Part shown: positions 10,508 to 50,540 of the stretch, piece after piece
Numbering within the stretch: the stretch's first letter is position 1
Layout: every line of letters starts with the position of its first letter
Origin: Candidatus Nomurabacteria bacterium
GTDB taxonomy: Bacteria > Patescibacteriota > Minisyncoccia > Phycocordibacterales > UBA9973
Length of the DNA: 64,000 nucleotides
Reading direction: 5' to 3'
NCBI GenBank assembly: GCA_943350875.1
Contig: CALRAL010000002.1
Coordinates: forward strand, 68,221-132,220
Position numbers and translations under genes: made by a program
The notes under the pieces: generated by a model
Seen by the model: the letters and a program-made list of their open reading frames with translations, nothing else
Database searches by the model: none
Told to the model about the DNA's origin: nothing

Positions 10508-10635
10508 CTCTCAAATGAGCTACAAAAACCACATTTCTGAAATACGAGATGTGGTTTTTTTTTATTTATACTACAAAACAATACGGTCGTCTTGTTTCAT
10601 AGTATACACAGGCAACGCCTGTGTATTTAATTTTG

Positions 10636-11033
10636 TGGAGATGCGGGGAATCGAACCCCGGTGCAGAAGGTTTTTACAAAGAAATCTACATACCTAGCGC
10701 ACTTTTTGGTTTAAATTGAAAAATTCTTAAGCGAGCCAAATATTTTTCAATCGATTCCTTTTGTTTCGAAAAAAAGTCAGGAAATTCTTTTCTCTATCCC
10801 GATTATATTATGCCTGCCCTCATATATCGGAAGTCTATGAGAGAGACACAAGCTTACGCTAAAGCGGAAACTTGAGCAAAAGCAAAGTCCTTCATACCGA
10901 AGTATGGAGAAGCGATTGCTTTTACTTTAGAAGCTAATTTTGCAATTAACATTTGAGCGAATTTTTATGAGATTACGCCCATGCTCAGTATGCATCAATG
11001 GTAAAAAGCCAACTGTCTATGCCTTGCATCCCC
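10636..11033 (-). ncRNA. ssrA: tmRNA (SsrA)
   Basis: 5' end GGGGAUGCAAGGCAUAGACAG... pairs with the 3' acceptor strand ...CAUCUCC-A and includes a G3:U70 wobble (alanine identity). A T-arm CGGGGTTCGATTCCCCG sits immediately 5' of the acceptor. An internal open frame ends ...FAFAQVSALA-TAA (stop at plus 10854-10856). smpB is immediately upstream on the same strand. Confidence 0.8.
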
Positions 11034-11552: not shown

Positions 11553-13463
11553 ATGGATATTAATTTTTTGAATAAAAAGACTGAACAGAACAAGGGTAAA
11601 AAAGGGAAAGAGCCAAAGTTTGGCAGAAGCCTTGCTTTGGCACTTTTTTTCTTTATGCTCATCACGGCATTTTATTTGGCGGTTTCTGATACATCAAAAA
11701 ATACTCCTGAGATTTCTATTTCTGATTTAGCAAAAAGTGTCTCGGCTGGAGAGGTCAAGAATATATTAGTAGAAGGAGAGAAACTCACTATCACATATAA
11801 GAATGATGAAATAAAAAGTACTAAAAAAGAAATTGAATCTTCTCTTTCACAAACACTTTTTAATTATGGAGTAAAACCAGATGCGCTTTCTAAGACAAAT
11901 GTGGAGATAAAAAATGAAAGTGGCTTTGGTTTTTGGTTGATGAATATGTTGCCATTTTTCTTGCCAGTTATTTTTATCGTGCTTTTCTTTTGGTATCTTT
12001 CTCGCCAAGTCAAAGGTGCAGGCATGCAAGCATTTTCTTTTGGTCAATCAAAGGCGCGTATCACAGATCCGAATGACAAAAACAACAAAGTGACTTTCAA
12101 AGATGTGGCTGGATGCAAAGAAGCGAAAGAAGAATTGAAAGAAATTGTAGATTTCTTAAAAAGTCCTAAAAAGTTCTTGGATATTGGAGCAAGGATTCCT
12201 AAAGGAGTCATTTTGACTGGTGCTCCGGGTACAGGGAAGACATTACTTGCCAGAGCTGTCGCAGGCGAATCCAGTGTACCGTTCTTTCATTTATCAGGAA
12301 GTGAGTTCGTAGAAATGTTTGTGGGCGTTGGAGCTTCACGAGTGCGTGATTTGTTTAAAATGGCCAAAAAAGCTGCCCCAGCCATCATATTCGTAGATGA
12401 AATAGATGCAATAGGACGAACTCGTGGGGGAGGATTTGGTGGGGGGAATGATGAAAGAGAGCAGACATTAAACCAGATATTGGTGGAAATGGATGGTTTT
12501 GAGCCAAATGACAAGGTGATAGTGATGGCGGCGACGAACAGGCCTGACGTTTTGGATCCAGCTCTTGTCCGCCCAGGACGTTTCGATAGAAAAGTCATTC
12601 TTGATTTACCAGATCGTGCAGACAGAGAAGCAATATTAAAAATCCATGCAGAGAAAAAGCCACTAGCTGAGGATATTAATCTAAAATTAATTGCCGAACG
12701 TACTCCTGGGTTCTCTGGTGCAGATCTGTATTCACTCATGAACGAAGGGGCAATCTTGGCAGCGAGAGAAAACAGAAAAAAAGTTTTCCAATTTGATTTG
12801 ATTCGCGCTATTGAAAAAGTAATGCTTGGACCGGAGCGTAAAAGTCATTTACTTTCTAAAAAAGAAAAAGAAATCACTGCGTATCATGAAGCTGGGCATG
12901 CTCTCGTGGCTTCGGTGTTACCTTATGCTGATCCAGTACATAAAGTCTCTATTATTGCTCGTGGCAATGCTGGGGGATACACACTCAAGCTCCCACTGGA
13001 AGAAAAACGTTTACAATATAAAAAAGAATTTATTGATGACATAGCGATGTCGCTTGGTGGATATGTGGCAGAGAAAATGATTTTCGGAGACATCACTACT
13101 GGGCCGTCGAGTGATCTCCAAGGGGCGACGAACCTCGCCCGGGCGATGATTACACGTTTTGGAATGTCAGATGTCATCGGTCCAGTAGCTCTCGCGCCGA
13201 ATGGGGGCCGGTCTTTGAATGGGGAAGTTTTTGAGCGAGATTATTCGGAAAGTGTTTCCACTAAGATAGATTCTGAAGTTTCAAAAATAATAGACAATGG
13301 CATAAAGTCAGCAGAGAAAGTGCTGACTGAACACAGGAAAGCACTCGATGCCATCGCAAACAAGCTTATAGAGGTAGAGACCCTAGAGCAAGAAGAATAT
13401 GAGAAAATCATAGTGGCACATGGTATAACTCCAAAGAAAAAGGACATAGAAAAGATTGGTTAA
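11553..13463 (+). CDS. ftsH: ATP-dependent zinc metalloprotease FtsH
   Basis: N-terminal TM helices, AAA Walker [18 protein letters not shown], second region of homology, HEAGHAL zinc site. Confidence 0.9.
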
Positions 13464-13523
13464 TCCATGTTTTTTGTGTTATTCTAGCAAATATTCCACC
13501 CTTAGCTCAGTTTCCGCCAGAGG

Positions 13524-13552
13524 CGAACCAGCCTATGGCTGGGGTTAGCTTT
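13524..13552 (+). terminator. putative terminator hairpin after ftsH
   Basis: CCAGCC-TAT-GGCTGG stem followed by a T-rich tract. Confidence 0.35.
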
Positions 13553-13559
13553 ATTGTTT

Positions 13560-13805
13560 ATGTTTAGAATATATGTGTTAAAAAGTTTAAAAAATGGAAA
13601 GAGATATGTTGGTTATACGAGTAAAATGTCTGAAAAAAGACTAATCGAACACAATTCAGGATCTAATGCTTTTACAAGACAAAATAGGCCTTTTGTGCTA
13701 ATCTATACCGAGGAATATAGTACAAAAACTGAAGCAATAAAAAGAGAAATTTTTTTGAAATCGGGACAAGGAAGAAAATTTTTAGATAAAATTATCCGCG
13801 TGTAG
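13560..13805 (+). CDS. small GIY-YIG nuclease-family protein
   Basis: IYVLKSLKNGKRYVGYT (GIY...YIG) motif; the stop codon overlaps the first bases of the downstream tRNA. Confidence 0.6.
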   Translation: MFRIYVLKSLKNGKRYVGYTSKMSEKRLIEHNSGSNAFTRQNRPFVLIYTEEYSTKTEAIKREIFLKSGQGRKFLDKIIRV

Positions 13806-13868
13806 CTCAGTTGGTAGAGCAATCCGCTTATACCGGATCGGTCCCACGTTCGAGTCGTGGCACGCGGA
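13796..13868 (+). tRNA. tRNA with anticodon UAU (Ile-like, reads AUA)
   Basis: Manual cloverleaf. Acceptor CCGCGTG/CACGCGG, D-arm TAGCTCAGTTGGTAGAGC, anticodon stem ATCCG/CGGAT with loop CTTATAC, T-arm CCACG-TTCGAGT-CGTGG, discriminator A, no encoded CCA. Confidence 0.7.
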
Positions 13869-13918
13869 CTTGACAGAAAAGTGCATTAGGTGTATACTAT
13901 GTATACATTTATAATTAA

Positions 13919-18976: not shown

Positions 18977-19034
18977 GTTATCCACATTGAGATTTTGTAA
19001 TGTAGATGTATGATGTAGAAGTGTTTAACAAATA

Positions 19035-19200
19035 AATAGGTTCATATTGGGGAAGTGAGGTGAAAGTCCTCCACAGTGCCGCTACGGTAAGTCCGATTTT
19101 GATTGGACAAGTCCGAATACCAATATGATATGTAGTCCCGAGCAGGAATTTAAATACTTAACGTATTTTTAGCCAAATGACTCCTCGGAAGGAGTTTTTT
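19035..19200 (+). promoter_or_regulatory. cobalamin (B12) riboswitch with terminator/SD-sequestering expression platform
   Basis: GGGGAAGTGAGGTGAAAGTCCTCCACAGTGCCGCTACGGTAAGTCCG matches the conserved GGGAA..GGTGAAAnTCC...CCGCTAC.GTAAG core. A downstream AGTCCCGAGCAGGAA B12-box-like segment follows. Hairpin GACTCCTCGGAAGGAGT plus T8 includes the AAGGAG SD, 10 nt before the ATG at 19206. Confidence 0.7.
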
Positions 19201-19634: not shown

Positions 19635-21460
19635 AAAAGATATTTTTAGGATTTAGTATTTTTATGAGCTTATTTGTGTTTAATTTTACTTATGCGGAAG
19701 ATGTGGTTCCAGATCCAGTTCTTACTAGCAGTATTACTATCCGTGATGGAGGCAATGTAATTTTTACAGGTGTTATTCCAATCAATTCAGATAGTACTGT
19801 TTTGTCTTTATTAAATGATGCTGACACTTTGAGCCCTGATTTTAATGTTTCTAATATACAGAATTTTTCTTTTGGGGCTTACTTAAAATGCATAACAGAT
19901 ATAAACGGAGAAAGATGTGATAATTGGCAGTATGCAGTTAACAATCTTTATACTTTTTCAAGTATAGATCAATATAAATTAAATGGGGGAGAAAACGTTT
20001 ATATATATTTTGGACCACAAAACAAAGTTATCCTTAGCTCAAATAATATAAATACTAACAATATTTTGACTGTTATAGCGCAAAAATATAATTATCAAAA
20101 TAATACCTGGGAGATAAGGACTGATGTAACTGTTGGTTTAACACAACCAGATTTACAACCCAACCCAAATAACAATTGGTTACCACCATTAGAAATAAAA
20201 ACTAATTTAGTTGATGAAAATGGTCAAGTTACTTTTTCGTCAATATCTGTTGGTTCTTATGATGTTGGAGTTCAGGAAGATGGGTATTTCCCTACCGAAA
20301 AACTAGATGTTATTTCTGCTCCTGTGATAGAGCATCATAGCTCTGGCGGTGGTAGAGCTTATATACTACCGCCAAAGCCAGTTTTTTCTACGCAAAACGC
20401 GATTAATTATTTAAAAAGTTTACAAGTAAATGATGGATCTTTTGGTGGATCTGATATGTACACTGATTGGGTGGGGATTGCTTTGTCTGCCGGAGGGGTA
20501 GCAGATAGTTCTACTAATAGTATAATTTCATATTTTAGTTTACATCCTCTAAAAAGTTCACTTTTGACTGATATTGAACGTAGGGCAATGACACTTCTAG
20601 CCTTGGGGCAGGATCCATACTCATTTAATAATACAGATTATATTTTTTTAATTTTGAAGAATTTTGACGGAATACAATTTGGTGATAAAGATCTAGTGAA
20701 TGATGATATTTTTGCTCTCATTCCACTTAGCGCTTCAGGATATAAAATAGATGATGAGGTTATTTCAAAAGATATCAATTTTATTCTTTCGAAACAAAAG
20801 ACAGATGGTTCTTGGGAAGAAAGTGTAGATGTGACTTCCGCCTCGATCCAAGCATTATCTTTATTTAACTCTTTGCCTACTGTTTCAGACGCGCTTTCAA
20901 AAGCTAGCCTTTATGTTATGAATTCACAAAAGGATGATGGTGGTTGGGGGAACGTTTATTCTACTAGTTGGGCGGTGCAAGCAGGGAATGCCTTAAATAT
21001 TATTTATACCAAGAATGGACATACAGGACTTGATTATTTTGCAAATAATCAGATAAGTGATGGGGGAGTTTTGTCACTAAATGAAACTTTAGAAAATAGA
21101 GTTTGGGCCACGAGCTATGTTATCCCTGCTATGCTTAGCAAAACTTGGAATAGTATTTTTCATCAAGTTCTTAAACCAGTAAAAGTAGATACTAAAGATG
21201 TCGTTTCTAAGATAGTAGAAAATAAATTAAAAGAAAAAGTTGTAGATAAAAAGATAGATAATATAATAAGTATTATAAAAAAAGTTAAAAAAGAGATTGT
21301 TGTTAGTCCTGAAACAGAGAAAATAGAAACAAAAAATATGCTTACAGCTTCAGCCATAGAAAGCCAGACGCGTGTTACTCAAAATGAAACTCCTTCGTTT
21401 TGGCATGAACTTTTTGCAGGAGTAGGGGATATCTTGAGAGTTCTGCATCTTCTTCGATAA
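19631..21460 (+). CDS. secreted protein: N-terminal DUF4430-like domain plus alpha/alpha-toroid (prenyltransferase/terpene-cyclase-like repeat) domain; putative cobalamin-capture protein
   Basis: Signal peptide (MKKIFLGFSIFMSLFVFNFTYA). A second DUF4430-like pattern (NWQYAVNNLYTF...YKLNGGENVYIYFG). Repeated DGSW/DDGGW/DGGV motifs typical of alpha6/alpha6 toroid repeats. Translationally coupled to the upstream DUF4430 gene. Confidence 0.5.
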   Translation: MKKIFLGFSIFMSLFVFNFTYAEDVVPDPVLTSSITIRDGGNVIFTGVIPINSDSTVLSLLNDADTLSPDFNVSNIQNFSFGAYLKCITDINGERCDNWQYAVNNLYTFSSIDQYKLNGGENVYIYFGPQNKVILSSNNINTNNILTVIAQKYNYQNNTWEIRTDVTVGLTQPDLQPNPNNNWLPPLEIKTNLVDENGQVTFSSISVGSYDVGVQEDGYFPTEKLDVISAPVIEHHSSGGGRAYILPPKPVFSTQNAINYLKSLQVNDGSFGGSDMYTDWVGIALSAGGVADSSTNSIISYFSLHPLKSSLLTDIERRAMTLLALGQDPYSFNNTDYIFLILKNFDGIQFGDKDLVNDDIFALIPLSASGYKIDDEVISKDINFILSKQKTDGSWEESVDVTSASIQALSLFNSLPTVSDALSKASLYVMNSQKDDGGWGNVYSTSWAVQAGNALNIIYTKNGHTGLDYFANNQISDGGVLSLNETLENRVWATSYVIPAMLSKTWNSIFHQVLKPVKVDTKDVVSKIVENKLKEKVVDKKIDNIISIIKKVKKEIVVSPETEKIETKNMLTASAIESQTRVTQNETPSFWHELFAGVGDILRVLHLLR

Positions 21461-23675
21461 GGCGTACTGCTTCTGTACGAGCTGCTTCTACCATTTTTAA
21501 GTTTTTAATAGCTTCCATTCCTAGGTCTGTAATGCCCCATTGTTTGGTGCCAGAGAGTTCTCCTGCGCCACGAAGGGTGAGATCAAGTTCTGCTAATTCA
21601 AATCCATTTTTTGCATTTTTTAGAGCTTTTAATCTTTCTATTGTTTTTTCACTTTTGGCTTCAGCAAATACATAGCAATATGCTTGATATGAACTTCTGA
21701 TAACTCTCCCGCGAAGTTGATGGAGTTGAGCAAGTCCAAACCTCTCAGCACCTTCTATTATTATTATCGTGGCATTTGGTACATTTACTCCGACTTCGAC
21801 GACTGAGGTAGCACATAGGATATTTATTTTTCCATCTGTAAAATCTTGCATCACTTCTTCCTTTTTTATTTTCGTCATTTTACTATGCAAGACTCCTATT
21901 TCATATTCTCTAAAAATTTCCTTTTTTAATCTTTTGGCTTCTGAAGTGACTGCTTTCATTTCAAGCTTCGCTCCAGCAGAATATTCCTTTACAGGGTCGC
22001 TGTCTCGGCTTGCTAGCCGAGCGCTCACTCTCGGGCCGTCGCCCTGCGAGAGACCCTGCAAAGGAAAATCTGCTTCTGCTTCAAATATTCTTGGACAAAT
22101 CACGTAGAGTTGTCTACCATTTTTTAGCTCAGTCCTTACTTTTTCATACGTTTCTTCTCTTTTATCTGGAGTCACTATTTCAGTAATTATTTGCTTTCGT
22201 CCTTTTGGCATCTCATCCAGAAGAGATAAATCCAAATCCCCGTATATAGTGAGGGCGAGAGTACGGGGGATAGGGGTGGCAGTCATAGAAAGCAAATGAG
22301 GCACAATATCACCTTTTTTGGCTAATTGTTTTCTTTGATTCAAACCGAATCGATGTTGTTCGTCTATCACTATCAAGGCTAAATTTTTAAATTTAACTGT
22401 TTTTTGAATTAGGGCATGTGTACCTATTAAGATGCTTATTTCTCCACTAGCTACCCACTTTAAAAGTTGTGATCTAGAAATATCTGTCCAACCGTCTGGG
22501 TTTACTTTCGAAGGGAATTTCCTACAACCACTTCCAGTGATGAGCCCGATGTTTATTGGTAGGTGCTTAAAGTATATTATGAAAGATTCAAAATGTTGAG
22601 TGGCTAGTATTTCTGTCGGAGCCATATAAGCTGTTTGTAAATGTCCAAAGTTTTGGGCATTACCTTTTACATCATTTGGTCTTTGTTTGATGGTGGCGTA
22701 GGCGACAGTCGCGGCTACTGCAGTCTTGCCAGAACCCACATCTCCCTCGAGCAAGCGAGACATTGGGAAACTTCTTTCCATATCTGAAAATATCGTATTT
22801 ATAGATTTAACTTGTGATTTTGTAGCTTCAAATGGGAAGCATTTCAAAAACTCTTCAATATCTTTTTTATCTATATTTACTTTAAAAGATTTATTTTTCT
22901 TATATTCATATTTGTCATGCTGGCATTCAAGTTGGATGCAGAAAACTTCTTCAAAGGCGAAACGTTTACGTGCCATCTCCGCATCCTTTTTATTCTTTGG
23001 GGTATGGATCCAGACGAGGGCTGTTTTTAAAGTTGGCAAACTATATTTTTTTAAAATATCAGGTGGAATATAATCTTCTAAAGTATCTAAAAGTCGAGTT
23101 TCTTTTCCGCCCAAGGCGGATCCGCCTTGGGCGGAGAAAATCTTTTGAATAGCGTGATAAAACCATTTTGAAGTTATTCCTTTTGTCTCGCGATAAACAG
23201 GGTAGGAAAGGCCTTTGTCTATTTCATCTTTTTTGTTAAATAAATTGTTGTGCGAATCTATCGGCAATGCACCTATCTTCTCAAATTCTGGGTTGGCTAG
23301 GTACGTACCACTTTTACTGGCTGTTACTTTGCCGGTGAGTTTGACATTATCGCCTTCGTGAATCATCTTGGCCAGATACGCCTGGTGATACCAAATGATT
23401 TTTATTTTCCCAGACAAGTCTGCTATCTCACCTTCTCCCATCGGTATCTTTGAACGAAACCCCTTTTTAGTTTTCAAATTTGAGACTTTTCCATAGACTG
23501 TAGCTACTTCCCCTGGCACTAATTCAGAAATCTTTTTTATTTCACTTATGTCACTGTACCTGACAGGGAAGTAAAACAACAAATCTACCACAGAAAAAAG
23601 ATTCAGGCTACGTAATGCCTTCTTTTGTTTCTCATCTAAACGAAATTTTACTTCAAGTCTATCCTTTAATTCCAT
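21375..23675 (-). CDS. recG: ATP-dependent DNA helicase RecG (with two GC-rich palindromic in-frame insertions)
   Basis: Wedge/OB N-terminus, Walker A DVGSGKTAVA, DEQH box, helicase C motifs. Confidence 0.85.
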   Translation of the reverse strand: MELKDRLEVKFRLDEKQKKALRSLNLFSVVDLLFYFPVRYSDISEIKKISELVPGEVATVYGKVSNLKTKKGFRSKIPMGEGEIADLSGKIKIIWYHQAYLAKMIHEGDNVKLTGKVTASKSGTYLANPEFEKIGALPIDSHNNLFNKKDEIDKGLSYPVYRETKGITSKWFYHAIQKIFSAQGGSALGGKETRLLDTLEDYIPPDILKKYSLPTLKTALVWIHTPKNKKDAEMARKRFAFEEVFCIQLECQHDKYEYKKNKSFKVNIDKKDIEEFLKCFPFEATKSQVKSINTIFSDMERSFPMSRLLEGDVGSGKTAVAATVAYATIKQRPNDVKGNAQNFGHLQTAYMAPTEILATQHFESFIIYFKHLPINIGLITGSGCRKFPSKVNPDGWTDISRSQLLKWVASGEISILIGTHALIQKTVKFKNLALIVIDEQHRFGLNQRKQLAKKGDIVPHLLSMTATPIPRTLALTIYGDLDLSLLDEMPKGRKQIITEIVTPDKREETYEKVRTELKNGRQLYVICPRIFEAEADFPLQGLSQGDGPRVSARLASRDSDPVKEYSAGAKLEMKAVTSEAKRLKKEIFREYEIGVLHSKMTKIKKEEVMQDFTDGKINILCATSVVEVGVNVPNATIIIIEGAERFGLAQLHQLRGRVIRSSYQAYCYVFAEAKSEKTIERLKALKNAKNGFELAELDLTLRGAGELSGTKQWGITDLGMEAIKNLKMVEAARTEAVRLIEEDAELSRYPLLLQKVHAKTKEFHFE

Positions 23676-24882: not shown

Positions 24883-24969
24883 CGGATGAGGTGAGATTCG
24901 AACTCACGGTCCTTTTAAGGGGACGGCGGTTTAGTAAACCGCTGGCTTAAACCACTTGCCTACTCATCC
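24883..24969 (-). tRNA. type II (long variable arm) tRNA, Ser-like, apparent anticodon ACU
   Basis: Manual fold of the minus strand. Acceptor GGATGAG/CTCATCC, discriminator G, anticodon stem GCGGT/ACCGC with loop TTACTAA, long variable arm, T-arm GTGAG-TTCGAAT-CTCAC. Confidence 0.6.
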
Positions 24970-25018
24970 TAAAATCTATAGATTATACATTATTCTATTA
25001 TTGATGTATAATGGATAT

Positions 25019-26056
25019 ATGTCTGAGTTGTTTACATATAATAGATTAAAATTTAATAAAAAGAAAGCACAGAGAAACTTTATTTTGAAAGCAGAAAAGA
25101 TTTTAAATTTAACAGATTTGGAGTTATCTAATAAATTGGGTATAAGTCGTAGAACAATTTATGAATGGAAAAATGAAAGGATTACTATTTCCCAAATAGC
25201 TGCAATAAAAATATCTAAATGGTCTAATATATCTATACCTAAAAATCACCAAATTATTGATTGGCGATTACATTTTCAAAAAGCTGGAAAAATAGGAGGA
25301 AGAAATAGATTTAATATATATGGAAATGTTGCTATGGATGAAAATTATAGAAAAGAAAAATGGAGGCAATGGTGGAATATGATTGGGCAACATAAAAAAG
25401 TAGCTCCAGGTTTTCAGTCGCTTATTAAAATAAAAATACCAAGAAAAAACCAATTACTTGCTGAATTTGTCGGTATCATGCTTGGTGATGGGGGAATAAG
25501 TAAATATCACACTACTATTACTTTATATAGTAAAGAAAAACAGTATATTTCATTTGTGAGTAAAGTAATAAATAAACTGTTTAATCTTAAACCAAAAATA
25601 TATAAACTTAAATATGCAAATGCGGTAGATATTGTTGTAAACAGAAAAAAACTAGTAGATTTCTGCCAGACTATAGGTCTTGTAATAGGAAATAAAATTA
25701 AACAACAAATAGATATCCCACTATGGATTAAAAAGAATAAAGGATTTTCTAGAGCTTGTATAAAAGGTTTAATAGATACAGATGGATGTTTTTATAATAA
25801 TTCTTATTATGTAAACGGTAAAAAATACTCTTATTTAAAAATTGCTTTTACAAGTGCTTCTTTGCCATTAGTAAACTCTGTGGCTCAAACTTTGATAAAT
25901 ATTGGAATAAATGCAAGAATAAGTAAAGATCAACGAGATGTTCGTATAGAAAATAGTAAATATGTGTTTAAGTATATAAAGGAGATAGGAACACATAATC
26001 ATAAGCATTTAGAGAAGATAAAAAAATGGAAAAATAGAGAGAATGTGTTAGAGTAA
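25019..26056 (+). CDS. free-standing double-motif LAGLIDADG homing-endonuclease-like protein with N-terminal HTH
   Basis: VGIMLGDGGIS and IKGLIDTDGCFY motifs; HTH LGISRRTIYEW; a TATAAT lies 7 nt upstream of the ATG (leaderless-like). Confidence 0.65.
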   Translation: MSELFTYNRLKFNKKKAQRNFILKAEKILNLTDLELSNKLGISRRTIYEWKNERITISQIAAIKISKWSNISIPKNHQIIDWRLHFQKAGKIGGRNRFNIYGNVAMDENYRKEKWRQWWNMIGQHKKVAPGFQSLIKIKIPRKNQLLAEFVGIMLGDGGISKYHTTITLYSKEKQYISFVSKVINKLFNLKPKIYKLKYANAVDIVVNRKKLVDFCQTIGLVIGNKIKQQIDIPLWIKKNKGFSRACIKGLIDTDGCFYNNSYYVNGKKYSYLKIAFTSASLPLVNSVAQTLINIGINARISKDQRDVRIENSKYVFKYIKEIGTHNHKHLEKIKKWKNRENVLE

Positions 26057-34603: not shown

Positions 34604-34711
34604 AAAATTCAAACCCCTCCTGACCTCCCCTTGTCAGGGGAGGAAAAATATAAAAGTCCCCCTGACAAGGGGGATATAGGGGGTTGTATTCTAAATCTGT
34701 GCATAACTTTC

Positions 34712-34739: not shown

Positions 34740-34851
34740 ATCACATTAGAAAAGTATTTCAGCCAAAGGCTGATCCGCCTCGGGCGGAAAAAATTAAGTC
34801 GAAAAAATTATTATTAGCTTCCGCCATACGCGGATAAATTATAAATAAATT

Positions 34852-35397: not shown

Positions 35398-35604
35398 ATG
35401 AAGAATTTTAAAAAAGGTTTTACGTTAATCGAACTCTTGGTCGTTATCGCTATCATTGGTATATTGGCTTCAGTAATTCTTGCTATATCTAGTTCTTCTA
35501 GGAGTAAAGGTAATGATGCAAAGGTAATAACTCAAATAGTACAAATGGCCAGTCAAAGTTTTTTATTTAGTGGAACAACAGGGACTTCTTATGTATCAGT
35601 ATAG
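35398..35604 (+). pseudogene. truncated second pilin copy (first 26 aa identical to pilA, then diverges and stops at a REP element)
   Basis: MKNFKKGFTLIELLVVIAIIGILASV identical to the pilA N-terminus; the ORF ends exactly where the REP array begins. Confidence 0.5.
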
Positions 35605-35940
35605 CAAGAACCGTTCTTGCTACAGGAAGAAGTCATCCAAAAGATGGCTTTTTCTTTTTCCCCACGATAGCAAGAACCGTTCTTGCTACAAGAGTATAGC
35701 AAGAACCGTTCTAGTATAGCAAGAACCGTTCTTGCTACAGGAAGAAGTCATCCAAAAGAAGTATAGTATAGCAAGAACCGTTCTTGCTACAATCAAGAAA
35801 TCACCCCTCAAAGGGTGGTTTTTTGTATTGGGTGGGTTTTAGTATAGCAAGAACCGTTCTTGCTACAAGAAGAAGTCATCCAAAAGATGGCTTTTTCTTT
35901 TTCTACACGATAGCAAGAACCGTTCTTGCTACAAGTAATT
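35604..35940. repeat. array of ~8 REP-like palindromic units (TAGCAAGAACCGTTCTTGCTA) with repeated spacers (BIME-like)
   Basis: Palindromic 21-23-nt units at ~35605, 35667, 35694, 35713, 35767, 35847, 35918. Repeated inter-unit segment GGAAGAAGTCATCCAAAAGATGGCTTTTTCTTTTTC. Confidence 0.8.
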
Positions 35941-35960
35941 AAACTTGATATACTTTAACC

Positions 35961-36641
35961 ATGTTGCGCAAAGATCCATTTATAACAGGCGAGTATTATC
36001 ATCTATATAATAGAGGCATAGACAAAAGAGTAATTTTTAAATCAAAAAATGACTATGAAAGGTTCATTATGCTTTTGTATGTCGCGAATTCTAACAACAA
36101 ACAGCCTCTTCGTTTGGATAATTTAATTAATCATTCTCATAAGAATTTTAATGAGATTATGCTTTTAGATAAAGGTGAACCACTTGTTTCTATTGGAGCT
36201 TGGTGTCTGATGACTAACCATTTTCATTTATTAGTTCGACAAGAGGTTGATGGGGGAATTACAAAATTTATGAAAAAACTGGGTACTGGATATTCCATGT
36301 TTTTTAATATTAAATATCAAAGAAGTGGAGCTCTTTTTGGTGGTTTATTTAAATCAAAGTTGATTGGGAATGATGATAATTACATAAGACACTTACTGGG
36401 CTATATTCATCTAAATCCACTTGATATTAAATTCTCTGGTTGGGAAAAAATTATTGAGGAAGCATATTCAAAAGAATGGAAGGATTTTCTAGAGAATTAT
36501 CTATATTCAAGCTATAAGGATTATATTGGTGAAGATAGGGTGGAGAAGAATATTTTAGATATTAAGAATTTCCCTGATTATTTTAATGAAGAAAATTTGT
36601 TTGAAGATTTTATAGATAATTACTTAATGGAAACATTATAG
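35961..36641 (+). CDS. REP-associated tyrosine transposase (RAYT; IS200/IS605-like Y1 HUH transposase)
   Basis: HUH motif NHFHLLV and catalytic-Tyr motif GYIHLNPL; REP palindromes flank it on both sides (variant copy at 36644-36668). Confidence 0.7.
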   Translation: MLRKDPFITGEYYHLYNRGIDKRVIFKSKNDYERFIMLLYVANSNNKQPLRLDNLINHSHKNFNEIMLLDKGEPLVSIGAWCLMTNHFHLLVRQEVDGGITKFMKKLGTGYSMFFNIKYQRSGALFGGLFKSKLIGNDDNYIRHLLGYIHLNPLDIKFSGWEKIIEEAYSKEWKDFLENYLYSSYKDYIGEDRVEKNILDIKNFPDYFNEENLFEDFIDNYLMETL

Positions 36642-37102
36642 CACTATAGCAAGGACCGTCCTTGCTACAATCAAAGGTGTTTTTGTATTGGGTGCGTTTT
36701 GTGTTTTGTGGTATAATTAAATTATGTTAAATTCACTTATAAACCTAGAAGCTTTAGGAGAAATAAGTAAAGATTTAGGTCAGATTTTTTTCGCTTCAGT
36801 TTTTCTTACTAGTTTAATGGGGAATGTGATAGATTATTCCACTATCTTTACAGGACTGATTTTATCATTAGTTTTTTGGTCGTTTTATGTTATATCTAGG
36901 AAAAATATTAATAATTAATTCATGAATATAAATGTTATGATAAATATATATATACTCGGGGCTTTATTAGCTATTGCAATTATACTTTTAGCTATTTTTG
37001 CAAAAAAAAGATAATCGCTAGTTTCCAATGAAAAGGGATATTTTCTGATTGTTTTTGGATATGTTATAATATACCAGATTATTATTTAAACAATTTACAA
37101 AA

Positions 37103-40215: not shown

Positions 40216-42363
<2,148 letters not shown>

Positions 42364-43555: not shown

Positions 43556-46543
43556 ATGTCTAAAATGACTAAATTTGAGGAAGAATATGGGAAATTAAAC
43601 AATGCCCAGAAGGAGGCTGTGGAGGCCTTAGAGGGGCCTGTAATGGTCATAGCAGGGCCTGGGACCGGGAAAACACAAGTTTTAGCAGTTAGAATAGGCA
43701 ATATCTTGAATAAAACTGATACTCCTCCAGATGGCATTTTGTGTCTTACTTTTACGAATTCTGGAGTGAGCGAGATGCGAAAAAGATTACATAAGTATAT
43801 AGAAAGCACGGCTTCAAAAGTAAACATTTTTACTTTTCATAGTTTTGGGATGAAGATAATTGAAGAATTTTATGGGGTGCTTGATTTGGATGAGGCGCCA
43901 GTCTTGATGGATGATACTGATTCAGCGTTGCTTTGTGATGATATACTAGAGAATAATGATTGGAAATATATACGACCACATTCTGATTCTACAAAATATT
44001 TTAGAGATTTAAAGTCTTTGATATCTCTATTGAAAAGGGAAGGTCTAACTCCACAGGATTTCTTATCTGCCATAGAAAAAGATATTAAGAATTTAAGACA
44101 GTCTGAAGACAGCATTTCTACTAGGGGTGCGACAAAGGGTGAATTGAAAAAGGAAGTCGTGCAAAAAATTGATGGCTTGGAGAAGAGTAAGGAGGTGGTG
44201 AACTTCTTTGATCTTTACGAAAAAATAAAAAAAGAAAAGAGTGTCATTGATTATGACGATGTATTAGAGCTTGCTTTAAAAATAGCAGAAGAAGGCGAAG
44301 AAGCTTTGGCAAGTATCAGAGAGAAATATTTATATGTTCTCATAGACGAACATCAAGATTCAAATGGAGTGCAAAATGAATTTTTGAAAAAAGTCTGGAG
44401 TGATGTGGAGAAGCCAAACATTTTTGTGGTGGGAGATGACAGGCAACTCATCTATGGTTTCGGTGGGGCTTCACTTTCTTATTTTGAAGGATTTAAACAT
44501 GCTTTTGGTAAAGCAAAACTAATCACTCTTGTAGAGAATTATCGTTCTACTCAGAACATATTAGATTCATCACATTTACTTTTACAAAGTAAAATGAGCG
44601 AAGAGAAATTGATCAGTCACAGCAAAGAATCTCATCCTATGAGATTAGTTGAATGTGATTATCCCAGAGATGAGATACTAGCTTGCGCTCTAAATATAAA
44701 AGAAAAAATCAAGAAAAAAACTTTAGATATAAATGATTGTGCGATCCTTGTGCCTAAAAATAAACAAGTCAGAAGTACTATTGCGATACTGCATGACATG
44801 GGGCTACCAGTATCTTCGTATGGGACTTTGAGACTCTTCGATTTGCCTGAAACAGAATCTTTTTTAAGAGTTTTAAGAATAATAAATAATCCTAGCGACA
44901 GTGTTCTTTTGGCAGAATCTTTGTTCGATAAGTTATCAGGTATTAGCCCTATAGATGGGCACAAATTTATAGTAAACAATGGTGCAAAAGATTTCTCCCT
45001 TTTATCTTTGACTGGAAATAAGAAACCAGAATTATTTGAAGATAAAAATCCTGTGCAAATTTGGATAAATAAATTATGTATTTGGCTTGAAGAATCAAAG
45101 AATCTGAATGTTTATTCTTTAGTACAACTTATCGGAGAAGAGTTTTTATTAAATCAATCAAAAGACCACGAAGAACTTGTCTCTAATATAGAAGTTGTCC
45201 GTACGATACTACATCTATTACTTTCACAAATAGAGAAAAGCCCAAAGTTAACTCTAAAAAGATTTTTAGATTTTATTTTAAGAATGGAATCATATGATGA
45301 GAATATTTCACTCGCTACTTTTAACGCAGATGAAGGAGTAAAAGTTCTGACTTTGCATTCTTCAAAGGGGCTTGAATTTGATTTTGTGTGGATGGCACAT
45401 ATGGATGAGAAATCATTAATGTCTGGCAAAAGACAAGGTTTTACACTACCTTCAAATATTGAAATGCTTGTAGAAGAAAAAGATGAAGAGGTGGTCAAAA
45501 GGCAACTATACGTGGCTATTACTCGTGCTAAAAGGTTCTCTACTATTTCATATGCAAGTCATTCATACACTGGGAGAGAACAAGAACTGGCACATATCAT
45601 CTCAGATCTACCTGAAGAAATATTTGAAAAACAAACTTTATCCGAAACAGAAAAGATAATCTTAAAAAATAATCCAAAAACATACATCACAAGTGTAGCG
45701 TCAGAGAAAAATAGTGTTGATTTGAAAGAACTTGTAAAAATAGTCGCCAAAGAATATGAGAAAAGGAATGTATCTGTATCACTTCTAAATAACTTTTTTG
45801 AATGTCCTTGGAAATGGTATTTTAGGAATTTATTACGTTTACCAGAAGCCAAGACTGAGAGTCTGGAGTTTGGAAATGCTGTGCATGGATCTGTAGATAA
45901 AATTTTAAAAATGAATAAAGTTCCAAATGTTAAAGAACTTGAGAAAATAGTCTTAGAAGAAACAAGAAAGAGGAATTATGGTGATGAGAAAAAACAGGAC
46001 AAGATGTATAGGGAAGTTTTTGGGATGGTCTTACATTGGGTGGAGGATCGTTTACCTGATATATCAAAAGATAGAGAAAATGAAAAAAGTATTTCGGTTA
46101 AAGATGATAGATTTCCACATTTAAATATTTACGGGAAAATAGACCTCATTGAGATGCTTGATGCTAAAAATGTACGAGTGACTGATTTTAAAACTGGCAG
46201 TGTGAGAAAAAAGAGTGACATAGAAAAGATAAATGAAGAGGGTAGAATGAGCGATTATATGCGTCAGCTCTCCATGTATTCATATTTGTTAGGAGAGAAT
46301 TCAAAATGGAAAAAGGAGGTGGTAGAATCCCAGTTGGAATTCTTAGAAGCAAAAGATAAAAAAGAAGCTTTTTATAGGACTTTTATAAACAAAGAACATA
46401 TAGATTTACTTTTGAAAGATATCGCTGATTATGATAGTTTGGTAAAAGAAGGTAGGTGGATAGATAGACCTTGCAATTTCAAGTCTTTTGGCAAACAAAA
46501 TGCCATCTGTGAATATTGTAAAATGGCAGAGATTTACAAATGA
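43556..46543 (+). CDS. UvrD/PcrA-like SF1 helicase fused to C-terminal PD-(D/E)xK nuclease with Cas4/AddB-type Fe-S cysteines
   Basis: Walker A AGPGTGKTQVL, DEHQD, UvrD motifs. C-terminal nuclease core (GKIDLIE...DFKTG) with Cys at CPWKW and CNFKSFGKQNAICEYC. Confidence 0.65.
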   Translation: MSKMTKFEEEYGKLNNAQKEAVEALEGPVMVIAGPGTGKTQVLAVRIGNILNKTDTPPDGILCLTFTNSGVSEMRKRLHKYIESTASKVNIFTFHSFGMKIIEEFYGVLDLDEAPVLMDDTDSALLCDDILENNDWKYIRPHSDSTKYFRDLKSLISLLKREGLTPQDFLSAIEKDIKNLRQSEDSISTRGATKGELKKEVVQKIDGLEKSKEVVNFFDLYEKIKKEKSVIDYDDVLELALKIAEEGEEALASIREKYLYVLIDEHQDSNGVQNEFLKKVWSDVEKPNIFVVGDDRQLIYGFGGASLSYFEGFKHAFGKAKLITLVENYRSTQNILDSSHLLLQSKMSEEKLISHSKESHPMRLVECDYPRDEILACALNIKEKIKKKTLDINDCAILVPKNKQVRSTIAILHDMGLPVSSYGTLRLFDLPETESFLRVLRIINNPSDSVLLAESLFDKLSGISPIDGHKFIVNNGAKDFSLLSLTGNKKPELFEDKNPVQIWINKLCIWLEESKNLNVYSLVQLIGEEFLLNQSKDHEELVSNIEVVRTILHLLLSQIEKSPKLTLKRFLDFILRMESYDENISLATFNADEGVKVLTLHSSKGLEFDFVWMAHMDEKSLMSGKRQGFTLPSNIEMLVEEKDEEVVKRQLYVAITRAKRFSTISYASHSYTGREQELAHIISDLPEEIFEKQTLSETEKIILKNNPKTYITSVASEKNSVDLKELVKIVAKEYEKRNVSVSLLNNFFECPWKWYFRNLLRLPEAKTESLEFGNAVHGSVDKILKMNKVPNVKELEKIVLEETRKRNYGDEKKQDKMYREVFGMVLHWVEDRLPDISKDRENEKSISVKDDRFPHLNIYGKIDLIEMLDAKNVRVTDFKTGSVRKKSDIEKINEEGRMSDYMRQLSMYSYLLGENSKWKKEVVESQLEFLEAKDKKEAFYRTFINKEHIDLLLKDIADYDSLVKEGRWIDRPCNFKSFGKQNAICEYCKMAEIYK

Positions 46544-49580: not shown

Positions 49581-50540
49581 ATGGAAAATAGCGATTACAA
49601 AATAATACTTTTTTATAAATACATACACATAGATGACCCAGAAGAAGTAGCCAAGAAAGAGAGAGAAGTCTGCATACGTTTAGGGTTGAAAGGCAGGTGC
49701 ATCATAGCCTCTGAGGGGATAAATGCTACTTATGAGGGGACAGAAGAAAATATAAAAGAGTATGTAAAAAAACTAGAAAAAGATAAAAGATTCTTAAACA
49801 TTCATTTCAAATTAAGTGATGGCACAGGGAATGCTTTTCCGCGACTGTGTGTAAAAACAAGAAAAGAAATAGTGTCGCTACATCTTGGCACATGCGACAT
49901 AGATCCAAATCAAGTGACGGGGATACATCTGAAACCAGAAGAATTACATAGTTGGATAAAAGAAGACAGAGAATTTTATATAGTTGATATGCGTAATGCG
50001 TATGAGCACAAAGTCGGACATTTTGAGAATTCTATTTTGCCTCCGATTGAGAATTTTAGAGATTTGCCAAAAGTAGTGGAGCAGATTGCTCATTTGAAAA
50101 ATAAAACAGTGCTGACTGTGTGTACCGGAGGAGTGCGTTGCGAGAAGGCTTCTGGGTTTTTGATAACTCAAGACTTTACGGATGTGTATCAGCTTGATGG
50201 TGGGATAGTTTCTTATATGGAAAAATATCCGAATGAAGATTTCAATGGTAAGCTGTATGTTTTCGATGGACGAGTGACCATGGGCTTTTATACAGATGAT
50301 AAAAAGCATGTGATAGTAGGTGTTTGTGATTTTTGTAGGGAGCAATCAGAGAATTATGTAAATTGTGATAATCCCGTATGTCATAGGCACTTTATTGCTT
50401 GCGAGAATTGTGTTAAGAAAGATGGAGGAAAAATTTTTTGTAAAAATGGTTGTATATTATCAAGGCATGGGAGGCCTGTCCGCCAACCCGCTAGCGGGGG
50501 CGGAAAGATTAGCCCAGTTGAAGCGGATTTGATACAATAA
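49581..50540 (+). CDS. trhO: rhodanese-domain protein TrhO/YceA family (tRNA U34 hydroxylase-like), with Cys-rich C-terminal extension
   Basis: ILFYKYIHIDDPEE N-terminus, rhodanese CTGGVRCEKAS active-site loop. Confidence 0.65.
   Translation: MENSDYKIILFYKYIHIDDPEEVAKKEREVCIRLGLKGRCIIASEGINATYEGTEENIKEYVKKLEKDKRFLNIHFKLSDGTGNAFPRLCVKTRKEIVSLHLGTCDIDPNQVTGIHLKPEELHSWIKEDREFYIVDMRNAYEHKVGHFENSILPPIENFRDLPKVVEQIAHLKNKTVLTVCTGGVRCEKASGFLITQDFTDVYQLDGGIVSYMEKYPNEDFNGKLYVFDGRVTMGFYTDDKKHVIVGVCDFCREQSENYVNCDNPVCHRHFIACENCVKKDGGKIFCKNGCILSRHGRPVRQPASGGGKISPVEADLIQ

Follow-up and report, generated by a model that had tools for sequence, protein, structure and literature searches.

Palindromic GC-rich insertions in recG of a Candidatus Nomurabacteria bacterium, probably small mobile elements tolerated as translated loops

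The recG gene lies at 21375..23675 on the minus strand of the window, by which we mean the whole 64-kb stretch of Candidatus Nomurabacteria DNA analysed here, and is a complete ORF of 766 aa. The full complement of a RecG protein is present above threshold: the wedge (Pfam PF17191, RecG_wedge), two RecA-like helicase lobes (PF00270, DEAD; PF00271, Helicase_C) and the RecG C-terminal domain (PF19833, RecG_dom3_C). RecG of T. maritima (1GM5) matches it with E = 6e-119. The gene carries two palindromic insertions, element A at 23103..23140 and element B at 21976..22073, which form local islands of ~70% GC in a window whose GC content is 34.9%.

Both inserts are lineage-specific, as the sequence-only reading that first pointed to them had proposed. 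Residues 592 and 593 of 1GM5 are contiguous opposite aa 535-569 of the window RecG, so that the insert at site B is absent there, and an 8-residue gap at site A shows the same for the other insert. The alignment to the NCBIfam RecG equivalog models is split into two pieces, with the break at residue ~535. Among 120 homologues of 71-78% identity, site A is occupied in 10 and empty in 110, and site B is occupied in 48 and empty in 72. A neighbour-joining tree of RecG is too star-like to choose between one ancient insertion and several. Element B lies at the boundary of the two helicase lobes. In an AF2 model of moderate quality (mean pLDDT 61), used solely to call the inserts low-confidence coil, both are predicted as coil with pLDDT <50 between regular secondary-structure elements.

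Element A (23103..23140, no strand assigned) is the near-perfect, in-frame palindrome encoding SAQGGSALGG that had been noticed from the letters alone, and it holds up in each of these respects. Its sequence is TTTTCCGCCCAAGGCGGA|TCCGCCTTGGGCGGAGAAAA, two 18-nt arms that are 94% complementary with zero spacer; SAQGGSALGG occupies aa 181-190, within the wider reading (F)SAQGGSALGG(K) at aa 179-191. Its 30-nt core (23106-23135) consists of TCCGCCnnnGGCGGA twice, a double hairpin made of the 15-nt units TCCGCC-CAA-GGCGGA and TCCGCC-TTG-GGCGGA and read as SAxGG-SAxGG. Folded as single-stranded DNA the palindrome reaches -18.8 kcal/mol (z = -6.3, 0/200 shuffles as good), and as RNA -29 kcal/mol. 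A T-run precedes the hairpin and an A-run follows it on both strands, the reverse of an intrinsic terminator, which rules out that role.

The window holds 7 occurrences of the unit TCCGCCNNNGGCGGA at <=2 mismatches, where 0.28 would be expected. What had been taken for a half-copy between pilC and pilA is a full two-hairpin copy at 34757..34794 (no strand assigned), between the pilC-like and pilin genes, with the structure TCAGCC-AAA-GGCTGA + TCCGCC-TCG-GGCGGA; it is 87% identical to element A over 38 nt (blastn-short E 4e-5), and its first hairpin has compensatory changes, TCAGCC/GGCTGA for TCCGCC/GGCGGA. Outside RecG, element A is found in two other ORFs in addition to this intergenic copy in the window. 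Within RecG, the 30-mer lies at aa ~148, ~182, ~365 or ~555 depending on the genome, and a lone 15-nt unit is found at aa ~177. Eight of the nine distinct double-hairpin copies are within ORFs, and the reading is SAxGG in every case. At fixed sites the distribution is patchy, with RecG site A filled in both deep RecG subgroups. Two relatives (L071 and L074) have one 15-nt unit at this site, pointing to a slippage-type gain or loss. Element A is a lineage-restricted 30-nt double hairpin, separate from B.

Element B, a Y-shaped palindromic element that we call type 1, covers 98 nt on the minus strand (21976..22073), its top strand being the recG sense strand, and encodes aa 535-567 (ADFPLQGLSQGDGPRVSARLASRDSDPVKEYSA). 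Its architecture, an outer stem enclosing two inner hairpins, is as first described from the sequence; the extent then given (21992-22057, ~66 nt) was too short, since the outer stem is ~20 bp long. We set the boundaries from aligned RecG copies, including an inverted one (L009). All parts lie on the minus strand. The 5' arm of the outer stem P1 (GCAGATTTTCCTTTGCAGGG, 22054..22073) pairs with the 3' arm (CCCTGTAAAGGAATATTCTGC, 21976..21996). Hairpin P2 (CTC-GCA-GGGC-GACG-GCCC-GA-GAG, 22028..22050) has the loop GACG, and hairpin P3 (GCGCT-CGGCT-AGCA-AGCCG-AGaCaGC, 21999..22024) the loop AGCA and two conserved bulged A residues. The two halves of the core can be written ..TCTCGCAG..GACG..CGAGAG and AGCGCT..AGCA..AGACAGCGAC. 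The folding energy is -33.2 kcal/mol for the DNA (z = -7.9 against shuffles); for the RNA it is -57.9 kcal/mol (z = -7.6). A hammerhead core was considered for the CUGACGAG string in P2 and ruled out, because its U varies (GGCC-GACG-GGCC variants).

Across copies, a highly conserved ~60-nt core with the two hairpins around a three-way junction is closed by the ~20-bp outer stem, whose sequence varies by subfamily with pairing always kept; conservation is therefore in the core and not at the ends. In an alignment of 120 copies, the P1 columns covary fully. The lower stem of P2 is invariant, and in its upper stem three of the four pairs covary, the fourth being invariant. The five upper pairs of P3 also covary, with changes on both sides in 241/600 cells and G-U in only 2, and its lower stem and bulges are nearly invariant (three pairs fixed, the other two deviating in 1/120 and 9/120 copies). 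Overall, 95.6% of cells are paired versus 38-46% with slid partners, the covariation score is 0.60 versus about 0.1, and changes on both sides occur in 23/32 pairs, although these figures, like the wobble counts that follow, overstate independence because the copies are phylogenetically related. The counts of G·T to A·C are 35:17 in sense copies, 33:13 in antisense copies and 64:10 in non-genic ones. The top strand of the element itself preferentially tolerates wobble pairs, and since the excess is found in all three groups alike, the strand on which the fold is preserved does not depend on host transcription.

A census with an exact 24-base core pattern recovered at least 118 loci. Every one among the matches listed is in a Patescibacteria MAG, and they are spread over many named lineages such as Nomura-, Kaiser-, Lipton- and Vogelbacteria. 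A genome may hold up to five copies among the matches listed, on different contigs and with a common outer stem (in MFVF01 these are L120, L131, L155, L175 and L189). Among the same matches, 61/123 copies lie in recognisable genes of at least 11 families, comprising UvrD (18), Tgt (11), RecG (10), TsaD (8), Def (4), UvrB (2) and others, with an aminoacyl-tRNA synthetase, Fmt and MetK as further hosts; 38 of these are in sense and 23 in antisense orientation to the host gene. Divergent AT-rich intergenic copies also exist. The broader proposal that GC-rich palindromes colonise housekeeping genes is supported, and reaches well past this genome. Within the window, element B is present as a single copy, the sole strong match of a covariance model (111 bits, E = 8e-31). 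The hairpins reported in ligA, pheT and trhO do lie inside those ORFs, and the window has further hairpin regions in ftsH and an addA-like gene. We judge the essentiality of the host genes from their functions.

The position of element B relative to the codons is strikingly uniform. Among the matches listed, 61/61 in-gene copies fall in one phase class whichever their orientation, although many share a site in orthologous genes, so that there may have been far fewer independent insertions than 61, and much of the pattern would follow from vertical inheritance combined with inversion in place. The core has zero stop codons in all six frames, and the host frame continues through each copy. Out-of-phase ORFs over the element have no Pfam support, except for one that is artefactually extended across an N-run, with the element beyond the domain. 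Two peptide readings result, GVSQADGPRGSA..DSDP and GSLS..ALPLGSSACETP, which an in-silico flip about the outer stem converts into each other. From these frame statistics, elements A and B are likely to be translated within their host proteins. Comparison of RecG genes that carry B gives 46-52% identity at third codon positions and 76-93% identity for the elements, by which measure element B in RecG is not ordinary coding sequence. Several unrelated element types substitute for one another at RecG site B, and one of them, a second type found there in L005, L006 and L025, is seen again in L057, where it lies in frame within a 487-aa ORF unrelated to RecG.

Both element types are thus dispersed over many genes, sites and genomes, with a structure conserved through compensatory change and with in-gene copies in a single codon phase. 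We consider it probable that A and B are small, non-autonomous palindromic mobile elements which were inserted into recG as DNA and have persisted as translated, tolerated loops. They would have entered the gene as DNA and would remain there because the frame is kept, no stop codon is introduced, and the product is a set of short hydrophilic surface loops that RecG tolerates; mobile elements of this kind would last only at sites where translation turns them into harmless loops. Element B sits either way round at a site with the frame kept, and the same outcome would follow if it turned in place about its outer stem. The elements may move as single-stranded hairpins on which a structure-specific enzyme acts, and the mobilising step might, as a tentative suggestion, use an HUH/Y1 transposase of the IS200/RAYT type. 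Against a mobile element stands the combination of a conserved core with variable ends in B, the inverse of a classical MITE.

The alternative that fares best, though we hold it to be unlikely, is that a few ancient insertions were exchanged horizontally, chiefly by homologous recombination or gene conversion, between alleles as well as between copies, and with no dedicated transposase. It would account for near-identical elements in RecG genes with saturated synonymous sites, for the patchy occupancy of fixed sites with site A filled in both deep subgroups, and for unrelated element types replacing each other at RecG site B, and there is a precedent in the yeast mitochondrial GC clusters, for which such a spread has been proposed and which lie in frame in var1 and show conversion-type inheritance (PMC8811140). 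Conversion cannot, however, seed new non-homologous sites, and A is found at five RecG positions and B in at least 11 gene families; it may operate alongside transposition and not in its place. We see little likelihood, too, in an extension of the mobile-element interpretation whereby the invariant three-way-junction core of B would be an active module, either catalytic or a single strand recruiting proteins, that drives its own mobility or a flip/flop inversion. If true, B would be a new class of structured mobile element in Patescibacteria that alters loops on the surface of housekeeping enzymes, with one encoded peptide exchanged for another at every flip.

The strong covariation and invariant junction nucleotides of B, together with its place at the RecG helicase-lobe boundary and its same-site recurrence in orthologues, might also suggest a cis-acting structured RNA, immobile, vertically inherited and selected in each host mRNA for stability, processing or pausing at a domain boundary. 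We find this improbable: among the matches listed, 38 copies of B run in the sense of the host gene and 23 in antisense, the wobble bias tracks the strand of the element itself even in antisense copies, at least 11 unrelated gene families and intergenic DNA carry it, copies within a genome have a common outer stem, and Rfam holds no matching family. Very doubtful is the idea that the hairpins go untranslated, being cut from the mRNA or bypassed by ribosomes like the 'byp' GC-cluster elements of Magnusiomyces mitochondria. Bypassed GC clusters within coding regions are known (PMC8811140) and the RNA hairpins are very stable (B -58 kcal/mol, A -29 kcal/mol), yet removal or bypass would free the element from frame and stop constraints, whereas the 61/61 in-gene copies of B keep one phase with no stops and A is invariably read SAxGG. 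That the palindromes formed locally within recG, through replication slippage or template switching and with no relation to other sequences, is scarcely credible even though A consists of two copies of a 15-nt unit and L071 and L074 have a single unit at the same site, because the 30-mer of A and the 98-nt element B both recur at many unrelated loci and genomes.

If A and B are mobile elements tolerated in translation, their closest analogues are the Rickettsia palindromic elements RPE-1 to RPE-10, palindromes of ~100-150 bp that lie in frame in housekeeping genes unrelated to one another, in a genome that is reduced and AT-rich (PMC10969869). The peptide that these add is conserved and compatible with the fold of the protein, and they are not known to have a transposase (PMC10969869). 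Element B is comparable in size and copy number (98 nt long, with at least 118 loci and as many as five copies in one genome) and in its in-frame use (61 copies among the matches listed, at least 11 families, two conserved peptide readings). It differs in that its three-way-junction core is conserved and its outer stem varies, that it occurs in both orientations at one site and that it spans many Patescibacteria lineages, not one genus. Neither A nor B is related in sequence to the Rickettsia elements, which belong to another phylum, so B is an analogue and not a member of that group. The GC clusters of yeast mitochondria are GC-rich palindromes in an AT-rich genome, mostly intergenic and in frame in var1, with short terminal direct repeats and a suspected spread by conversion or transposition (PMC8811140). 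A and B resemble them as short GC-rich palindromes in an AT-rich genome, in frame in coding sequence and suspected to spread in these same ways. The clusters, however, belong to eukaryotic organelles and are shorter (about 30-50 nt), and the byps derived from them break the frame and are bypassed where A and B keep it.

Bacterial repeat families offer looser parallels. REPs are by definition extragenic, and the foot of their stem bears the tetranucleotide GTAG or CGTC. Like REP/REPIN-RAYT systems, A and B are GC-rich hairpin repeats thought to act single-stranded, and a RAYT-like gene with palindromes is present in the window. They are distinguished by being found inside ORFs (61/123 B copies among the matches listed and 8/9 A copies) and by the foot tag, which A lacks and which in B corresponds to a loop (GACG, CGTC on the other strand); nor are A and B the repeats flanking the window RAYT. 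Classical MITEs (Correia/NEMIS, ERIC, BOX, RUP) have conserved terminal inverted repeats, defined target-site duplications and variable interiors. A and B are likewise small, non-autonomous, foldable and multi-copy, and MITEs too are sometimes intragenic, but in B the core is conserved and the stem sequence varies by subfamily. The palindrome-associated transposable elements derived from IS200/IS605 (PATEs) lack a long terminal inverted repeat; they integrate on the 3' side of a fixed tetranucleotide and favour one replication strand. B shares with them two different subterminal hairpins, extrahelical bases, a strand-specific structure and the lack of an obvious target-site duplication; neither the fixed-tetranucleotide insertion nor a clear strand bias is seen for it. 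In geometry only, B recalls the T/Y fold of parvovirus/AAV ITRs, with a long stem around two small hairpins and 'flip' and 'flop' orientations, but it has no homology to them, no terminal position and no Rep gene.

The family of element B is apparently undescribed. Rfam gave zero matches at gathering threshold in the window and nothing meaningful at E <= 10 over 21900-23250, the element peptides have no match in Pfam and NCBIfam even at E <= 1, corresponding to no curated peptide family, and we found no description of it in the literature on palindromic or in-frame elements of CPR/Patescibacteria/Parcubacteria. A concatenated element-peptide query of a 5.8-billion-protein set returned 30 candidates and 1 match, such a query being uninformative.

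Bacteria of the candidate phyla radiation have tiny genomes and little spare DNA. The presence of the B family in core repair, tRNA-modification and translation genes would make it selfish DNA persisting through translation. In-frame selfish DNA was thought to be largely specific to Rickettsia, and this family would be an independent second example of far wider spread. Such elements also create an annotation problem, as they lengthen or split marker-protein alignments (RecG models break at the insert). In CPR metagenomics they would inflate apparent protein divergence and could provide a sequence tag for lineages and horizontal exchange. The conserved B core with its covarying stems is a specific handle for seeking the mobilising enzyme.

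No autonomous partner was found in the 8-kb flanks of the B loci. Across B copies, no target-site duplication recurs consistently and no terminal repeat is conserved. Direct repeats of 2 nt flank 18 copies versus 9.1 ± 2.6 expected, with imprecise boundaries, and (A)GCGAG is present on both sides in 25/120 copies, in GC-rich genomes only. GC skew in the orientation of the element is negative at 67 loci and positive at 46 (p = 0.06), an effect explained by host-gene orientation, past which there is no signal of the replication-strand bias expected for IS200/IS605-type transposition. The window does encode a RAYT-like Y1 transposase (35961-36641) with its own flanking palindromic repeats, a 21-mer (TAGCAAGAACCGTTCTTGCTA) different from A and B, and RAYT homologues in two genomes with element B (L155, L108) each have their own palindromes. 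A candidate enzyme class is present, and nothing ties the window RAYT to A or B. Among viral contigs, element B has 0 matches and element A has 2, on contigs of ~54% GC, one of them at the C-terminus of an ORF for a group-II-intron-type reverse transcriptase.

The recG gene (21375-23675, minus strand) lies in an AT-rich window (34.9% GC overall, 31-41% per 2-kb bin); its product, 766 aa long, has all the domains of a RecG protein (wedge, DEAD, Helicase_C and the RecG C-terminal domain). Its nearest database relatives are the RecG proteins of Paceibacteria, Nomurabacteria and other Patescibacteria (71-78% identity), which range from 718 to 805 aa with a base length of ~720 aa. Two GC-rich palindromes interrupt the gene in frame: element A (38 nt, 23103-23140) and element B (98 nt, 21976-22073, codons 535-567), at positions that we call site A and site B. 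When aligned with T. maritima RecG (1GM5), query residues 15-534 correspond to chain residues 125-592 and the alignment restarts with query 570 at chain 593, so that 35 residues of the window RecG have no counterpart; site A falls on an 8-residue gap, and NCBIfam RecG models also split at about residue 535. An insert occurs at site A in 10 and at site B in 48 of 120 close homologues, and the empty sites are very uniform across 82 related RecG loci (EKIL-KEKT-LD for A, PRIFEP-DPEKE-LA-LNVKS for B). As the sequence-only reading had proposed, the inserts are thus not conserved RecG sequence, being without counterpart in 1GM5 and missing from most close homologues, and both are lineage-specific. 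An AlphaFold2 model, itself of moderate quality (mean pLDDT 61), places residues 182-191 and 530-573 in coil (pLDDT < 50) between regular helices and strands, consistent with both inserts being surface loops.

Element A has the form first described for it, its two 18-nt arms being 94% complementary and directly adjacent, and its predicted folding energy is -18.8 kcal/mol as DNA (z = -6.3) and -29.4 kcal/mol as RNA (z = -6.2) against dinucleotide shuffles. Two 15-nt hairpin units, TCCGCC-nnn-GGCGGA, follow each other in it as direct repeats; because their loops, CAA and TTG, are reverse complements of each other, the two units also form a 30-nt palindrome centred on GGATCC, which in the recG frame reads S-A-Q-G-G S-A-L-G-G. 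What had been taken for a half copy between the pilC-like and pilin genes is really a full two-hairpin copy (34757-34794), with compensatory substitutions in its first hairpin. We surveyed the spread of element A in ~1 Mb of RecG-centred loci from relatives (database loci are designated by L numbers). The 30-mer lies at RecG aa ~182 in the window, L009 and L014, in decayed form in L015 and as one unit only in L071 and L074; other RecG positions are aa ~148 (L042), ~365 (L061) and ~555 (L071, L074), and L053 has one unit at aa ~177. Outside RecG, it was found in two ORFs, one of 239 aa (L064) and one of 650 aa, where it is C-terminal (L012). Its flanks are nearly always TTT and AAA, its ends at site A are compatible with insertion between ..ATTTT(A/C) and AAAGAA.., and within the ORFs surveyed it always reads F-SAKGG-SAxGG-K. 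No copy was present in 0.83 Mb of more distant Patescibacteria loci, and element A therefore looks lineage-restricted. An intrinsic terminator can be dismissed: on both strands a T-run precedes the hairpins and an A-run follows them, the reverse of such a signal. The exact double-hairpin pattern also occurs twice in the viral-contig collection, on contigs of ~54% GC (L201:4886-4915, L202:390-419); one of these copies, reading SALGGSASGGK, is C-terminal in an ORF for a reverse transcriptase of the group-II-intron type.

Element B exists as the sequence-only reading described it, except that its extent had been drawn too short: the 98-nt unit includes an outer stem of ~20 bp (GCAGATTTTCCTTTGCAGGG / CCCTGTAAAGGAATATTCTGC). 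It folds at -33.2 kcal/mol as DNA (z = -7.9) and -57.9 kcal/mol as RNA (z = -7.6). The consensus structure of 120 copies, obtained with RNAalifold, has three parts: the outer stem P1 and two inner hairpins, P2 and P3. In P2 the lower stem (CUC/GAG) never varies, and an internal loop separates it from a 4-bp upper stem that covaries and is capped by GACG. In P3 the lower stem, with two bulged A, is nearly invariant, whereas the 5-bp upper stem covaries; the loop is AGCA. One junction pair is G-C in 76 copies and C-G in 43. Pairing is kept in 95.6% of cells, against 38-46% with the partners slid, the covariation score is 0.60 against ~0.1, and 23 of 32 pairs have changed on both sides; the copies are mutually related, so these statistics overstate independence, though the effect is beyond doubt large and consistent. 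G-U pairs are nearly missing from the inner stems (2 of 600 cells in the five variable P3 pairs). B does not behave as ordinary coding sequence: RecG genes that share it are essentially saturated at third codon positions (46-52% identity), yet their B elements are 76-93% identical. Either the nucleotides themselves are constrained, then, or the copies are younger than their host genes.

The exact core pattern, TCTCGCAGNNNGACGNNNCGAGAGNNAGCGCT, was found in at least 118 stretches in a search of one genome per species (185,579 bacteria and archaea). Among the matches listed, every carrier is a Patescibacteria MAG, and these include Nomura-, Kaiser-, Lipton- and Vogelbacteria, Paceibacterota, Minisyncoccia and records labelled Saccharibacteria. 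Several genomes hold three to five copies on different contigs with a common outer stem, for example the five of MFVF01 (L120, L131, L155, L175, L189). R1, a covariance model made from 120 distinct copies, detected a single copy in the window (111 bits) and, in related loci, more divergent, AT-rich and mostly intergenic copies (25-54 bits). Element B had no copy in 2.9 million viral contigs, matches no Rfam family, and no description of it was found in the literature searched.

Of the 123 copies considered, 61 lie well inside ORFs of 13 families, a count of copies that may be inherited and flipped instead of independent insertions. UvrD/PcrA accounts for 18 copies, spread over several sites and in two cases paired within a single gene, followed by Tgt (11), RecG (10), TsaD (8), peptide deformylase (4), UvrB (2) and a class-I aminoacyl-tRNA synthetase (2); other representatives are the CCA-adding enzyme, Fmt, an RluA-type pseudouridine synthase and MetK. 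The colonisation of genes by palindromes, first noticed in this genome, thus extends well beyond it, to at least 118 Patescibacteria loci, and both element types are dispersed and structurally constrained. Two copies occupy different positions of one gene in L097 and L123 (UvrD) and L102 (Tgt), oppositely oriented in L097 and L102.

The core of B has no stop codon in any of the six frames, and all 61 in-gene copies use only two readings: sense, G(V/L)SQADGPRGSA..DSDP (n=38), and antisense, GSLS..ALPLG(S/P)SACETP (n=23). When the window copy is inverted in silico around its outer stem, the sense reading becomes the antisense one and the downstream frame stays intact, so the two readings are one codon phase as "flip" and "flop". 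ORFs in other phases over B occur only in GC-rich genomes and without Pfam support, the sole exception being artificially extended across an N-run. The copies in genes are therefore phase-restricted. Such a restriction would be expected of read-through translation with selection, and unexpected if the segments were excised or bypassed; from these reading frames, we infer that they are translated through.

Among the non-Watson-Crick cells of B, G·T exceeds A·C on the strand that has the GACG and AGCA loops, in sense (35:17), antisense (33:13) and non-genic (64:10) copies alike; A·C on this strand corresponds to G·T on the opposite one. The conserved fold is hence that of B's own top strand, irrespective of which way the host gene is transcribed. 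Such a pattern speaks against a cis role in the host mRNA and favours an element-intrinsic single-strand activity, as ssDNA or as an element-derived transcript.

Structured inserts have a hot spot at RecG site B, where ~20 of 83 RecG genes (the window and 82 related loci) carry one; they belong to at least five sequence types. Nearly all those longer than ~100 nt have a long outer stem, mostly with inner hairpins (MFE -29 to -104 kcal/mol). The type in the window (type 1) is common to L001, L002, L003, L012 and L017, and L009 carries it at the same site in reversed orientation. A second type (L005, L006, L025) also lies in frame in an unrelated 487-aa ORF (L057:16743-16819), and a third occurs in both orientations (L017, L045, L035). 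At least four palindromic types other than type 1 were seen at this site, in L005, L006, L025, L007, L008, L010, L018, L035, L045, L056 and L060; the insert of L056 scores as a divergent member of the element-B family (43 bits).

No terminal sequence or target-site duplication common to all copies of B was found. Two-nucleotide direct repeats around it are somewhat enriched (18, with 9.1 ± 2.6 expected), and (A)GCGAG directly abuts both sides in 25 of 120 copies, all from genomes of 50-58% GC, a sign of target-site duplication or else of a favoured target motif. Examples are L089, L090, L091, L104, L111, L113, L121, L152 and L173, and several copies so bounded are then followed by similar ..CGAGCGAACCCTATG.. 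sequence. GC-skew analysis gave no clear replication-strand bias of B beyond that explained by host-gene orientation.

The window encodes, 13 kb from recG, a RAYT-like IS200-family Y1 transposase (35961-36641, 226 aa) with a Pfam Y1_Tnp match above threshold, HFH and GYIHLNP motifs, and REP-associated tyrosine transposase as its best NCBIfam match. A 21-nt palindrome unlike A or B, TAGCAAGAACCGTTCTTGCTA, flanks the gene with six copies upstream and one downstream (35602-36667), the latter with compensatory changes; this is the layout typical of RAYT/REP systems, here in a CPR genome. Homologues occur in L155 (1940-2754) and L108 (2886-3664), each flanked by its own perfect GC-rich palindrome, e.g. 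CCCCGTCAAGGAG|CTCCTTGACGGGG, and in L026 (18641-19261), where the inverted repeats listed are weaker and AT-rich; the genomes of L155 and L108 hold several B copies. These genomes therefore do encode HUH enzymes that handle hairpins, and HUH/Y1 enzymes would be a candidate class for A and B, which we infer to be mobilised as single strands.

Classical MITEs have conserved ends and a variable interior, REPs are extragenic with a GTAG or CGTC tag, and IS200/IS605 PATEs lack a long inverted repeat and show strand bias; element B is unlike all three. Its Y shape and flip/flop orientation recall parvoviral terminal repeats in geometry only. The nearest functional analogues of A and B are the Rickettsia palindromic elements, ~150-bp palindromic repeats in frame in unrelated metabolic genes, whose peptide is compatible with the protein fold (PMC10969869). 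A and B agree with these in descriptive terms but have no sequence, peptide family or taxon in common with them, and are thus analogues, not members. Yeast mitochondrial GC clusters are a second analogue: these GC-rich palindromes in AT-rich DNA have short terminal repeats and lie in frame in var1, and one yeast bypasses them during translation (PMC8811140). A and B are best read as in-frame palindromic selfish DNA, itself a known kind of element. Apart from the extent of B and the supposed half copy, the original observation is borne out; the results support its interpretation and carry it considerably further.

Other GC-rich hairpins were seen within the FtsH, LigA, AddA/UvrD-like helicase, TrhO and PheT ORFs (13116-13149, 40969-40993, 43604-43669, 50461-50507 and 52443-52479). 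Those of LigA and PheT, with CCCC..GGGG stems, are similar to two intergenic hairpins (34616-34687) whose loops, TTGTCA and TGACAA, are mutually reverse-complementary. An 80-aa GIY-YIG nuclease ORF (13563-13802) comes after an A-like double hairpin (13513-13555) and a fragment that looks like the 5' end of a tRNA, and is followed by a complete tRNA (13796-13868); the region 13500-13870 may be a small mobile insertion adjoining a tRNA gene. A free-standing 366-aa LAGLIDADG and HTH ORF (24883-26056 region) also directly adjoins a tRNA gene (24883-24969, minus strand). Finally, the regions 19032-19129 and 10633-11033 jointly account for a tmRNA gene on the minus strand and an AdoCbl-II riboswitch upstream of a small ORF and a 613-aa ORF, the latter with terpene-cyclase-like and weak cobalamin-binding-like matches.
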